A DNA stretch of 64,000 nt from Oscillospiraceae bacterium (GTDB lineage Bacteria; Bacillota; Clostridia; Oscillospirales; Oscillospiraceae). The position numbers were made by a program, and so were the translations under genes. The notes beneath the pieces are model-generated. The model ran no database searches, was not told the origin of the DNA, and worked only from the letters and a program-made list of their open reading frames with translations. Where the stretch lies: contig JAZRVW010000037.1 in NCBI GenBank assembly GCA_045599385.1, positions 53-64,052 on the forward strand, written 5' to 3'. Below are positions 38,420-41,990 of the stretch, piece after piece (positions within the stretch are counted from its first letter, which is position 1; every line of letters begins with the position of its first letter).

Positions 38420-39667
38420 ATGATAATGGATTGTGAGAAATACATAGGCAAATGCGTCTGCGGCAGAGAGCACGTACTTGAAACCAAGCTTGTTGTCGTG
38501 GAGTCCGGCGCAATAAAGAGCTTTGAAAAGTACATGGCCGATGTCGGTCTTGCAGGTAAAAAAAGAGCCGTGGTTTACGACTCCGTTATCTATAAGCTCA
38601 CCGAGGGCAAGCACGTTTTTGCCGACCAGGAAATCGTACTCGAGTCCCAGGGGCTTCGCGCAGAGGACGTTCTCATTGAGGACATGATGGCAAAGCTGGA
38701 CAGTGACATTGAGGTCATTGTGGCCTACGGCGCAGGCACCATCATGGACTTCGGCCGCTACCCTGCATATAAGCTGGGCATTCCCTTTGTGGCAATTCCC
38801 ACCCTTGCCTCCTCCGACGGCTTCACCGCCAACATCTGCTCCGCAATCATAAACGGTCAGAAAAAGAGCACTCCCATGTGCGCTCCCGTTCTCGTTGTCA
38901 CCGACCTTGACATTATAAGCGGCGCTCCTGCACGTCTTGTTTCCAGCGGCATAAACGACATCCTTGCAAAGTACATCTCCCTTGTGGACTGGAAAATCGC
39001 GAAAATCGTTGACGGCGAATACTTCTGCCCCATGGTTTGCGAGCTTGCGCAGGAGGCTCTTGACATTATGCGCGAGGCAGCCGACAAGTACGCCGCAACG
39101 GGCGTTGCAGACCACGAGGCCATGACCATGGCCCAGATGAAGAGCGGACTCACCATGCAGCTTCTCAACCACTCCCGTGCCGCCAGCGGTGCCGAGCATC
39201 TCATGGCTCACCTTGTGGAGATGCACCCTCCCCGCTTTGAAGAGGCCGAGGGCATTCACGGTGAATGCGTCGGTGTCGGCACCTTTGCCTGCGTGAAGAA
39301 GTATCACGAGCTTGCGGCAAAGGGAACGCCCAAGGCCAAGGCCTTTCAGCCTCTGACTGACGAGTGGATTACCGAAAAGTTCGGTGAAAATCTGGCCGCG
39401 GGCATCATTAAGGAAAACGCTGAGGACATTCTCGGCACCTTCGACCCGCAGAACATCGTCGACCACTGGGACGAAATCAAGGCGCTTATTGATGAAATTC
39501 CTCCCGTTGAGGAAATGGAAGCTCTGTACAATGCCTGCAGCTGCAAATATCTTCCCGAGCATGTGGGCATCAAGCCCGAGCTTTCCGAGGAAATGCTCAC
39601 CATTTCCGCCGCAATCCGCAACCGCCTTACCCTTATCCGCATGATGAGAGTTCTTGATTTTGAATAA
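38420..39667 (+). CDS. iron-containing alcohol dehydrogenase-fold protein, sn-glycerol-1-phosphate dehydrogenase (AraM/EgsA)-like
   Basis: Fe-ADH/DHQS-like fold. GAGTIMDFGRY glycine motif, D..H..H metal ligands (SSDGF, GAEHLMAHLVEMH, HGECVG). Confidence 0.7.
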   Translation: MIMDCEKYIGKCVCGREHVLETKLVVVESGAIKSFEKYMADVGLAGKKRAVVYDSVIYKLTEGKHVFADQEIVLESQGLRAEDVLIEDMMAKLDSDIEVIVAYGAGTIMDFGRYPAYKLGIPFVAIPTLASSDGFTANICSAIINGQKKSTPMCAPVLVVTDLDIISGAPARLVSSGINDILAKYISLVDWKIAKIVDGEYFCPMVCELAQEALDIMREAADKYAATGVADHEAMTMAQMKSGLTMQLLNHSRAASGAEHLMAHLVEMHPPRFEEAEGIHGECVGVGTFACVKKYHELAAKGTPKAKAFQPLTDEWITEKFGENLAAGIIKENAEDILGTFDPQNIVDHWDEIKALIDEIPPVEEMEALYNACSCKYLPEHVGIKPELSEEMLTISAAIRNRLTLIRMMRVLDFE

Positions 39668-39676
39668 GCGAAACAA

Positions 39677-39717
39677 AAAGCCGCTGTCTATATCACTGGA
39701 CGGCGGCTTTATTTTTT
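39677..39717 (+). terminator. rho-independent terminator
   Basis: AAAGCCGC..GTC/GAC..GCGGCTTT stem followed by ATTTTTT. Confidence 0.7.
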
Positions 39718-39850
39718 CTTAAACTTTTTGAACAATTTAATGTATTTTGTGGAATAATGCAAAAAATTTTCAATATGTTGTAATATTACGCAAATAGTCG
39801 CGTCATTAAGGGTGAAAGCAATAATAAATCACGAAAAGGAGGACATAACA

Positions 39851-39916
39851 ATGGTCGGCTTCGTAGTAGCAAATTGGCTTTTCTGGGAAGTATTTGTTCA
39901 GTTCATCGTTTTCTGA
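39851..39916 (+). CDS. micro-ORF 1 (21 aa, aromatic/hydrophobic)
   Basis: AAAGGAGG SD exactly 8 nt before the ATG. Product is MVGFVVANWLFWEVFVQFIVF. Paralogous to micro-ORF 2. Confidence 0.45.
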   Translation: MVGFVVANWLFWEVFVQFIVF

Positions 39917-39966
39917 TTTAACACCCCATCATAATTAGTTTATTATTTTTATAGGAGGAAAGACAA

Positions 39967-40035
39967 ATGATTAAACTCGGTTGGCTCGGCTTCAAGCTTG
40001 CAAACTTCATTTTCTGGGACATCATTGTTTTCTGA
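39967..40035 (+). CDS. micro-ORF 2 (22 aa, aromatic/hydrophobic)
   Basis: TAGGAGG SD exactly 8 nt before the ATG. Product is MIKLGWLGFKLANFIFWDIIVF. Shares the AN[WF][LI]FW[ED] core and the IVF* end with ORF 1. Confidence 0.45.
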   Translation: MIKLGWLGFKLANFIFWDIIVF

Positions 40036-40044
40036 TTTTGAATA

Positions 40045-40077
40045 AAAAAGGCCGTTCCGAAAGGAACGGTCTTTTTT
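40045..40077 (+). terminator. terminator of the micro-ORF unit
   Basis: GGCCGTTCCgaaaGGAACGGTC stem followed by TTTTTT, 10 nt after the ORF 2 stop. Confidence 0.8.
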
Positions 40078-40084
40078 ACGGTAT

Positions 40085-40121
40085 CAAAAAATATCCACAC
40101 CTCTCGGTGTGGATATTTTTT
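40085..40121. terminator. bidirectional terminator hairpin
   Basis: ATATCCACACctctcgGTGTGGATAT stem flanked by an A-run and a T-run. Lies just downstream of the minus-strand 48-aa ORF. Confidence 0.75.
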
Positions 40122-40123
40122 AT

Positions 40124-40270
40124 TTACAGTCTGTTGTCGCGGTCAAGGCTGTCATAGTGTGCCATCATGGGCTTTTCCAAAGCTTTTACAAGCTTTGTGT
40201 CCAGATTGCACCAGTAAATGACCTGAGTGGCAAGGAAGGCTGCGCCGAGAGCGATAAATATTTTTTTCAT
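40124..40270 (-). CDS. small membrane-anchored protein (48 aa)
   Basis: GAGGA SD 7 nt before the ATG. Product is MKKIFIALGAAFLATQVIYWC + a polar tail. Followed by a terminator. Below the track cutoff. Confidence 0.5.
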   Translation of the reverse strand: MKKIFIALGAAFLATQVIYWCNLDTKLVKALEKPMMAHYDSLDRDNRL

Positions 40271-40454
40271 AATACAATCCTCAAAAACAAAATATCAAAC
40301 CTCGTAGAGTTTCGCGTCCGCAGATGCGAAATAAATTTCAATCATTTTTTGCCGCGACATGTGCGTGGCAAAAAATACTTCTCGCGAGCAAACGTGCGAG
40401 CGAAGCGAGTGCAAGCCTCTCTCGTGGAAGTGCTTGCACTTTCACGAAATATTT

Positions 40455-41990
40455 TTACCAGCTTTCGTCATCGTCAAACTCAATGAGGGTGGGGTCAACG
40501 GGCTCCGCGTTCAGAACGGTGGACATGAAGGTGTTCACGTCACCGCGCATATCGCGGCGTGAGATGGAGGTGGGCTCCATGAGGTCCTGACGCACCTTGC
40601 AGAGCTTTGCTCCGCGCTTTCTCGCGCTTTCCTCGAACAGTCCGTTCATGGCGCCGACGCCCTTGCAGGAAATCTGGTCGAAGAGAATTACGAAGTCACA
40701 GTTGAACTCATCGTAGCAGCGCCACATATCGTCAATCATTACCTCGTAGCCGCCCTTGGTGTGAGCGCGCATGGTGGAGGTCTGAACCATATTGGCAATG
40801 CCCATCAGCATACTGTCGCGGGAGGAGGTGTCAATGAGCTGGGAGCCGTGAACGTCAATCATTTCAATGACGCTTTCAACGCCCCAGGCGTTCATAACCC
40901 AGTTGTTGAAGTTTGCATAGTTGTTGGCTGGAGTGTTCCAGATAACAGCGCGGTAGCGGATATCCTTCTTGCACTTGCCCGAGGCAACTTCCTTTGCGAG
41001 AATCTTATTGACCTTGCGGTCATTCGCAACGCCGCGTGGGTCAACGCAGATTACCTGATGCTCAAAAATTCTGTACATCCATGTGGAAGAACCCGTGTGG
41101 GGCGGGAACTTGGTGCGGTTAAACTCCCACTTCTCGAACTTGAGTTTCTGTTCCTCGTTCCAGTTTTCGCAGGCAGCCTTCAGCGCGTCCCAATCGTACT
41201 TCATGCCGAGCTTCTCTTCCAGCCACTGAATTGCGGAGAGAAGTTCCTCAACGGCGTAATCCTGAACCTCGTCCTGCAGCCAGCGCAGAGGAACGTTCAG
41301 CGGGTGGGTTTCAAGGCCGTGGCGGCGGTCCTGAACGGCGGTGGTCATGATACTGCCGTCGCAGGGCATGTTGCAGGTCAGCATGCAGGCGCCGATTTTG
41401 GGGTAGTCGTCGTCAATGGCAACGCCTGCCTCAAAGGAGGGCAGCGGGCACACATCTGCGGGCAGACCGCGCAGTTCGGATTCGTTTATGTAATGTGTGG
41501 TGCTGTGCTGATTGATAAGGGAGGGCAGATAAACGGGAATCATCTGATAGAGAATGGTCTTGGCCTCGGGGAAGCCTGCGGTGACCAGGGCGGGAACAAG
41601 CTCGTCCATGCAGATGATTTTTTTACTCAGCTCCTCGGCCTTCTTGCTGCCGGGGTGCAGATACGCATCGGCGGAAAGGATTGTGTCAAGGTATTCGGTG
41701 ACAACGTCGGTAAGCAGCATGAAGTTGTTTCTGCCGCCGCGTAGCGCTGCACCGCGGAAGCCTTCGCAGCTGCGGTCAAAGAAGGAGGGAACGGTGAGAT
41801 AGGTGAACATCCAGCGGTATCTGAAAATTGCCTTGACGTTCTGCACGGGGTGGCCGAGAGCCCATTTTATAAGCTTGTACCAGAGCTTGCACCACATTGC
41901 ATAGTCATAAGCCGAATCCTTTATGCCGCGCCATTCACGGAACTTGTAAATACCCGTTTTGGGCTGCATATTTTTGCCCATGTTTTTCAT
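40455..41990 (-). CDS. 2-hydroxyacyl-CoA dehydratase family protein (HgdA/D-component-like, 511 aa)
   Basis: HGD-D-family collinearity with Cys ligand regions (ACMLTCNMPCDG, FDQISCKG). ATGA overlap with the upstream partner. GGGGGAGAG SD present. Confidence 0.78.
   Translation of the reverse strand: MKNMGKNMQPKTGIYKFREWRGIKDSAYDYAMWCKLWYKLIKWALGHPVQNVKAIFRYRWMFTYLTVPSFFDRSCEGFRGAALRGGRNNFMLLTDVVTEYLDTILSADAYLHPGSKKAEELSKKIICMDELVPALVTAGFPEAKTILYQMIPVYLPSLINQHSTTHYINESELRGLPADVCPLPSFEAGVAIDDDYPKIGACMLTCNMPCDGSIMTTAVQDRRHGLETHPLNVPLRWLQDEVQDYAVEELLSAIQWLEEKLGMKYDWDALKAACENWNEEQKLKFEKWEFNRTKFPPHTGSSTWMYRIFEHQVICVDPRGVANDRKVNKILAKEVASGKCKKDIRYRAVIWNTPANNYANFNNWVMNAWGVESVIEMIDVHGSQLIDTSSRDSMLMGIANMVQTSTMRAHTKGGYEVMIDDMWRCYDEFNCDFVILFDQISCKGVGAMNGLFEESARKRGAKLCKVRQDLMEPTSISRRDMRGDVNTFMSTVLNAEPVDPTLIEFDDDESW

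Follow-up and report, generated by a model that had tools for sequence, protein, structure and literature searches.

Within the 64,000-nucleotide stretch of Oscillospiraceae DNA analysed here (the window), two very short tandem reading frames raise the question of whether they are genes and, if so, what kind of peptide they encode and what controls them. ORF A (39851..39916) and ORF B (39967..40035), whose coordinates include the stop codons, lie on the plus strand together with all of the signals described below for their transcript, and specify 21 and 22 residues, respectively. The initial annotation had presented them as paralogues that share an AN[WF][LI]FW[ED] core and an IVF-stop ending, and both the sequence and the list of open reading frames bear this out. 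It had also placed a Shine-Dalgarno (SD) sequence, AGGAGG, at exactly 8 nt from each ATG, which we confirmed at 39837..39842 for ORF A and at 39953..39958 for ORF B; the SD of ORF B is kept in its orthologues in genomes G020 and G048. In the 64-kb window, the combination AGGAGG-N8-ATG has six matches where 0.38 would be expected, a count reached by none of 100 shuffles, and two of the six are those of ORF A and ORF B.

The flanks of the two ORFs define a separate transcript. An intrinsic terminator usable in both directions follows ORF B at 40044..40077, where A/T pairs extend a core stem at 40052-40069 to the outer limits. Such a terminator had been noted previously and is indeed present, whereas its reported distance of 10 nt from the stop codon is approximate, the extended stem beginning after 8 nt and the GC core after about 16 nt. 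In relatives, a terminator of different sequence stands at the same place. The gene upstream of ORF A has its own terminator at 39677-39710, and the next ORF downstream, 48 aa long (40124-40270) and equipped with a hairpin of its own at 40086-40121, is convergent. Because of this upstream terminator and the convergent orientation of the downstream gene, the A-B unit cannot be a leader for that gene, in agreement with the earlier view of an isolated unit that does not encode leader peptides. Ahead of ORF A, an ECF-sigma-type promoter was seen in the sequence, with a -35 element TGTAAT (39779..39784) that is common to relatives of the two ORFs in unrelated contexts and, 16 nt after it, a -10 element CGTC (39801..39804) that matches the PWM described below. 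The predicted start of the transcript lies near 39810. No ECF-type promoter element is present in the 50 nt between the stop of ORF A and the SD of ORF B, and no terminator was found between the two ORFs. Since ORF B has neither an ECF-type promoter of its own nor a terminator separating it from ORF A, the two belong to one unit, and the region is best explained as a single bicistronic transcript of about 270 nt composed of an ECF-type promoter, ORF A and ORF B each with its SD, and a terminator. A sigma-70-like site, TTAACA-17-TATTAT, also lies between the ORFs at window positions 39918-39946. Only 6 nt separate the end of its -10 element from the SD of ORF B, and a transcript from this site would therefore start approximately at the SD; the site is probably non-functional, a separate weak promoter for ORF B being possible.

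Relatives of the two peptides were gathered by iterated profile searches in which each match was inspected. Members were found in 10 of 44 genomes of the genus, in one genome of another genus of the same family, and on 17 gut or animal metagenome contigs, several of them labelled human gut; all of the genomes compared are MAGs, in which non-detection of a member does not equal absence, and the orthologues counted are not independent observations. All members but the L074 copy are 18-24 aa long and have a GGAGG-type SD 6-8 nt upstream of the ATG, and a clear terminator follows in nearly every case. The motif originally proposed holds for both ORFs of the window, whereas the core of the family as a whole, K-[ILF]-A-x-[WF]-x-F-[WF]-[NDE]-x-[IVF], is wider, and most members have FDWP[FY] as their C-terminus where ORF A and ORF B end in IVF instead. 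The L074 copy (L074:2501-2566, metagenome contig ERZ808240 NODE-3566; …KIASWIFWNSIFDWPY) has no recognisable ATG/GTG/TTG start, SD or ECF promoter and may be decayed.

The genome from which the window derives (G000) holds exactly three copies: ORF A, ORF B and an 18-aa peptide of the FDWPF type on contig C5 (C5:22001-22054, minus strand; locus L055:1498-1554) behind an AGTAAT-N17-CGTA promoter. When the family HMM was run against the six-frame translation of this genome, the three copies were recovered with E values of about 1e-7 to 2e-8 (1.3e-7 for ORF A), while the next match had an E value of 1.4. The C5 peptide is identical to that of a copy in G048, the nearest relative, with one synonymous difference between the genes. 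G048 also has a locus syntenic to that of the window, with the same flanking genes, a single micro-ORF of the B type, and one bidirectional terminator between this micro-ORF and the convergent gene. An orthologue of ORF A was not found elsewhere and is absent from this syntenic locus. Because the G048 locus holds only a B-type ORF, we regard ORF B as the conserved orthologue and ORF A as a lineage-specific extra copy. A further ORF B orthologue, in G020, likewise encodes 22 aa and sits in a different genomic context.

The searches agreed with the earlier statement that the family was not a recognised one. Family peptides had no Pfam or NCBIfam match even at E <= 10, and a literature search returned no description of such peptides. 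A degenerate DNA pattern for AN[WF][LI]FW[ED], applied to 401 genomes of the order, gave one match outside the genus (G252) versus two for a control pattern, which is chance level. The B-type motif had no relatives in JGI metagenomes or IMG/VR, and the FDWP-type motif had none in IMG/VR. Weak HMM matches in other genera (G450, G513, G446 and G522) proved to be antisense stretches inside long genes and were discarded. At the loci that were retained, flanking genes differ nearly every time; those in G011 and G050 adjoin a two-component system, and no receptor (no shared TPR/HTH), exporter or other gene is consistently adjacent. The family consists of stand-alone micro-genes positioned at many different sites in the genomes of one gut Oscillospiraceae genus; they also occur in one other genus and in gut metagenomes.

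We then considered whether the peptides, rather than the RNA, are what has been conserved. Nei-Gojobori counts within orthologue groups, which cover the members with orthologues and therefore leave ORF A outside, gave pN/pS values of 0.03-0.4 with pS of up to 0.8 (pN/pS 0.22-0.38 for ORF B), and substitutions are concentrated at third codon positions. The last 14 residues of the G020 peptide are identical to those of ORF B, and all five nucleotide differences in that stretch are synonymous. A DNA search of relatives aligned the window with G020 at 80 % identity over 39949-40036 only, that is, from the SD through the stop codon; while SD and ORF persist from lineage to lineage, the UTRs and terminators have been replaced by other sequences. 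The initial annotation had named two patterns that would speak against translated genes, namely frames broken by indels or stops, and SDs that pair internally in a structured ncRNA. Within orthologue groups, reading frame and ORF length are kept, with no stops and no frameshifts, and across 12 family transcripts there is no conserved SD pairing. In 11 of these 12, opening the SD costs 0.1-3.7 kcal/mol, at or below codon-shuffled controls. The exception is ORF A. In the predicted fold, its SD is paired with the Phe-rich 3' end of the ORF and needs 8.3 kcal/mol to open versus 4.8 +/- 1.3 in codon-shuffled controls; judging from this model, translation may be weaker for ORF A than for ORF B. Because changes are mostly synonymous, alignment is limited to the stretch from SD to stop and the SD is not sequestered, these are coding genes and not an RNA. 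Together with the HMM separation in G000, this confirms that ORF A and ORF B are real genes that standard callers miss, as had been proposed, and that they belong to a previously undescribed family of hydrophobic aromatic peptides of 18-24 residues in gut Oscillospiraceae, for which the substitution pattern shows purifying selection.

The promoter provides a link between these scattered genes. When the 160 nt upstream of all family members were aligned, units in unrelated contexts were seen to have TG(C/T)AAT-N16-CGTC in common, the -35 element starting 67-99 nt before the ATG. ECF sigma promoters of Firmicutes, such as those of B. subtilis sigma-W, -M, -X and -V, are built in this way. Eight nucleotides at the -35 element of the window (TGTAATAT) are identical to the -35 of the promoter of an ECF sigma operon in the same genome. 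A PWM trained on sigma-gene promoters only was evaluated against a background of 355 upstream regions of G000. The window promoter scored 7.9 against a background maximum of 6.0; 12 of 18 family units scored above all 355 background regions, two further units fell in the top 1 % and three in the top 7-9 % of the background, and the unit from the other genus had no match to this sigma-trained matrix. The strict promoter pattern has five matches in G000 versus 2-10 in shuffles, which is no genome-wide enrichment, and the promoter argument therefore rests on where the matches lie and not on their number. Three of the five are not inside a long reading frame and have a gene downstream of them, namely those of the A-B unit, of the ECF sigma operon on contig C95 and of a purE-like gene. 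The last of these, 73 nt before a gene for a 162-aa product that starts like PurE, is a probable chance match. A TGTGATATAAT...CGTC site found in seven genomes before a gene whose product, by eye, starts like a Crp/Fnr-type regulator was set aside as an ordinary extended -10 sigma-A promoter and not an ECF promoter.

The operon on contig C95 (C95:49-1778, locus L079) comprises a gene with a TTG start for a 186-aa ECF sigma factor and, overlapping it, a gene for a 372-aa protein. The sigma factor matches Sigma70_r2/r4 and TIGR02937, the latter being a generic ECF match only. The 372-aa protein has a single membrane pass, an RsgI-like central domain and a helical C-terminal domain, and from these features we read it as the putative anti-sigma factor. 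A strict promoter site lies 19 nt before the SD of the sigma gene. The operon is present in all 44 genomes of the genus, with orthologues of the sigma factor at 66-95 % identity, and TGT(G/A)AT-N16-17-CGTC is kept in all 30 orthologues fetched while the spacer varies; conserved elements around a varying spacer are the footprint of an autoregulated promoter. The promoter of the A-B unit matches this autoregulated promoter, which is the pattern by which membership of an ECF regulon is recognised. In terms of sequence, then, the promoter type of the family is that of the conserved ECF sigma/RsgI-like anti-sigma operon, and most copies carry it. On the strength of promoter similarity we infer that the C95-type sigma would be the one that transcribes the micro-genes. 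ECF sigmas with CGTC -10 elements are known to cross-recognise promoters; G000 has about five ECF-like sigmas, and the other four sigma genes have different -35 elements. Compared with the B. subtilis sigma-W/-M/-X/-V promoters (TGAAAC/TGCAAC/TGTAAC - N16-17 - CGTA/CGTC/CGAC), the architecture is the same, with an 'AAC/AAT' -35, a 16-17-nt spacer and a CGTC -10, and there, as here, the sigma/anti-sigma operon is autoregulated. However, the -35 described here ends in AAT or GAT where that of B. subtilis ends in AAC, and the anti-sigma has an RsgI-like central domain, unlike those of the B. subtilis systems.

The composition of the peptides bears on where they may act. Family peptides have GRAVY values of 0.2-1.8, 27-41 % aromatic residues and a net charge of -1 to +1; their Eisenberg moment at 100 degrees is 0.06-0.26 at a mean hydrophobicity of 0.3-0.76, and octanol energies summed on the Wimley-White scale are favourable, ranging from -3 to -12 kcal/mol. 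These predicted properties fit a short membrane-buried helix. They do not fit an amphipathic peptide of the PSM kind or a cationic one of the bacteriocin kind. They uphold the membrane character first suggested for ORF A and ORF B, in the form of uniform hydrophobicity. A length of 18-24 residues is, however, marginal for spanning a bilayer and counts against a membrane helix.

Taking composition and promoter together, we consider it somewhat better than an even chance that the family represents ECF-sigma-induced membrane micro-proteins with a conserved membrane partner, or the membrane itself, as their target in an envelope response. In such a pathway, an envelope signal would be sensed by the membrane anti-sigma, the ECF sigma would be released and the micro-genes would be transcribed, and their strong ribosome-binding sites would yield abundant peptide. 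The peptides would insert as short helices into the cytoplasmic membrane and act there, most likely by using the invariant A-x-W-x-F-[WF]-N...FDWP[FY] surface to bind a conserved partner in the membrane or, alternatively, by adjusting the membrane itself. Counting against this reading, toxins or signals would likewise be expected to vary in location and to be patchily distributed, as this family is (10 of 44 genomes). The closest functional analogy known to us is with small membrane proteins tied to ECF or two-component signalling, such as B. subtilis YhdK (sigma-M) and YxlD/YxlE (sigma-Y) and E. coli MgrB (PhoQ), the comparison made here being one of wiring. Like the family peptides, these are short and hydrophobic, with expression wired to envelope signalling, and they work through a protein partner in the membrane. 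They differ in being 47-100 aa long and usually encoded inside the operon of the regulator, whereas the present genes specify 18-24 aa and are stand-alone, scattered and patchy, with their own terminators; there is no sequence similarity between the two groups.

Several other explanations were weighed against ECF-induced membrane micro-proteins. One is that an ECF-dependent small RNA is the functional product and the ORFs are incidental, or that the ORFs are simply due to chance. ECF sigmas do drive small RNAs such as MicA and RybB, and the full A-B transcript folds better than shuffled sequences (z = -4.2), although mostly owing to the terminator. The excess of synonymous over non-synonymous changes and the conserved block from SD to stop between replaced flanks speak against it, as do the SD results and an Rfam scan of 39400-40500 that, at E <= 10, returned only terminator-like matches far below gathering scores; we regard this explanation as highly improbable. 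The same degree of doubt attaches to a PSM-like cytolysin or leaderless bacteriocin secreted against other cells. The initial annotation had likened the unit to the S. aureus psm-alpha operon, with which it does have in common tandem ORFs of about 20 aa, individual SDs and one short transcript, and several leaderless bacteriocins are Trp-rich, as these peptides are. As a family assignment, however, the likeness fails on the low hydrophobic moment, as computed for the family peptides only, and on a net charge that is not cationic. PSMs are amphipathic helices under AgrA control with export by Pmt, whereas here neither a dedicated ABC exporter nor an immunity gene lies nearby, and viral contigs gave no match. 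A leaderless secreted pheromone of the SHP, ComS/XIP or PrgQ type would leave the cell and undergo trimming, after which the last 7-9 residues (for example NAIFDWPF) would be re-imported or sensed. Those precursors, at 17-25 aa without a classical leader and with a hydrophobic aromatic C-terminus, do resemble the family, in which an N-terminal Lys/Arg precedes such a C-terminus; FDWP[FY] is also similar to what we take to be the D-W-W motif of type II XIP peptides, and the G011 and G050 loci beside a two-component system would suit a signal. Nevertheless, genes of this type always stand beside their Rgg, ComR or PrgX receptor and are diversified into pherotypes, while the micro-genes have no consistently adjacent Rgg/RRNPP-type receptor or exporter and their C-terminus hardly varies between species or even between genera. 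Moreover, conservation extends over 16 residues and not just the last 7-9, and the promoter is of the ECF type and not a receptor-bound operator. A pheromone thus seems unlikely.

A stress-induced membrane toxin of type I (Ibs, TisB, Hok), the other assignment made at the outset, would depolarise the membrane of its producer when the ECF sigma fires and thereby stop growth or induce persistence, whether or not an RNA antitoxin exists. Tandem and multiple copies, patchy distribution and variable locations are in keeping with it, and stress-controlled promoters are known for TisB and DinQ. Its nearest counterpart is E. coli Ibs/Sib, in which very hydrophobic peptides of 18-19 aa are likewise encoded in multiple and tandem copies and escape gene callers. 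The predicted pairing of the ORF A SD with the 3' end of its ORF could be counted on the same side. Ibs genes are fully overlapped by the antisense Sib RNA and poorly translated, however, whereas the micro-genes have perfect SDs, accessible in 11 of 12 transcripts, behind an ECF-type promoter. A search for an antisense RNA across the two ORFs had been suggested; a scan of the minus strand with the sigma-70-type consensus showed no promoter-like site between 39773 and 40269, and in G048 the bidirectional terminator abuts the convergent gene and thereby leaves no room for a 3'-overlapping sRNA. The peptides also have no charged C-terminal tail, and the near invariance of FDWP[FY] suggests specific binding over generic membrane damage. 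The toxin assignment is consequently not upheld, and we hold a toxin to be unlikely.

Micro-genes of this family are not the only small ORFs behind such promoters. A genus-wide scan with the promoter pattern, followed by inspection of AT-rich matches, showed that the same promoter type precedes two other kinds of stand-alone small ORFs. One kind consists of acidic ORFs of 33-34 aa (…DEF[FY]WLD[IM][FI]FG…) at L121:129-230 (G008), L122:128-229 (G009) and L124:162-266 (G050). Each of these has its own terminator and a TG(C/T)AATAT-N14-CGTCTTTAT promoter, and the family has no NCBIfam match. The other kind, of 35-40 aa, belongs to a family of 32-40-aa small proteins with the consensus FILEQVQNVLFWTND..AII, which was detected in 15 of the 44 genus genomes and has about 20 cluster representatives in a library of 1.84 billion proteins and no Pfam match; an ECF-like promoter stands ahead of 9 of its 10 scorable copies. 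A member in G000 is an unannotated 40-aa ORF (protein P0001; C5:14656-14778, minus strand; locus L127:857-979) with its own terminator and a TGAAAC-N16-CGTC promoter. Between the N-terminal helix of this family and the micro-ORF core, V-x-N-x-[LI]-F-W can be aligned; at a profile-profile probability of 2.5 %, however, the similarity is not significant, and common descent of the two families is therefore not established. Larger genes were also encountered. On G000 contig C61 (C61:52493-53908; locus L143:190-1509), a gene for a 439-aa cell-wall protein with CAP and SLH domains follows TGAAATAT-N14-CGTCAT and may, judging from this one genome, be another gene controlled by this ECF sigma or by a related one. 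In G054 (L048), the micro-ORF lies directly upstream of an alpha/beta-hydrolase gene, and its apparent homologue on G000 contig C75 (C75:12744-13583; locus L144), recognised by eye from a similar N-terminus, has a weak ECF-like site of its own (TGCAATAAT…ACGTTT).

A bolder proposal, and one that we offer as rather unlikely, is that the regulon of a core ECF sigma/RsgI-like anti-sigma pair of gut Oscillospiraceae consists almost entirely of stand-alone micro-protein genes, from at least three families (18-24, 33-34 and 35-40 aa) with an aromatic 'Phi-F-W' core, the peptides being effectors or feedback elements of the pathway. Binding to the anti-sigma would be one example, and competition at the site-2 protease responsible for its cleavage another. 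Published work shows that small membrane proteins are degraded by RseP, the site-2 protease of E. coli (PMC10470546), and this makes feedback between ECF-induced micro-proteins and anti-sigma proteolysis conceivable. If correct, the proposal would describe a signalling circuit whose output is micro-proteins and not enzymes.

Proteins of fewer than 25 residues are almost never annotated, and the regulator is known for very few of them. Here, a family that gene callers overlook and that neither Pfam nor NCBIfam contains is linked, on the evidence of sequence, to a single conserved stress sigma, in a group of bacteria that is abundant in the human gut and poorly studied. If the output of this sigma should consist mainly of micro-proteins, it would represent an unusual design for an ECF pathway and a useful model for tiny membrane peptides.
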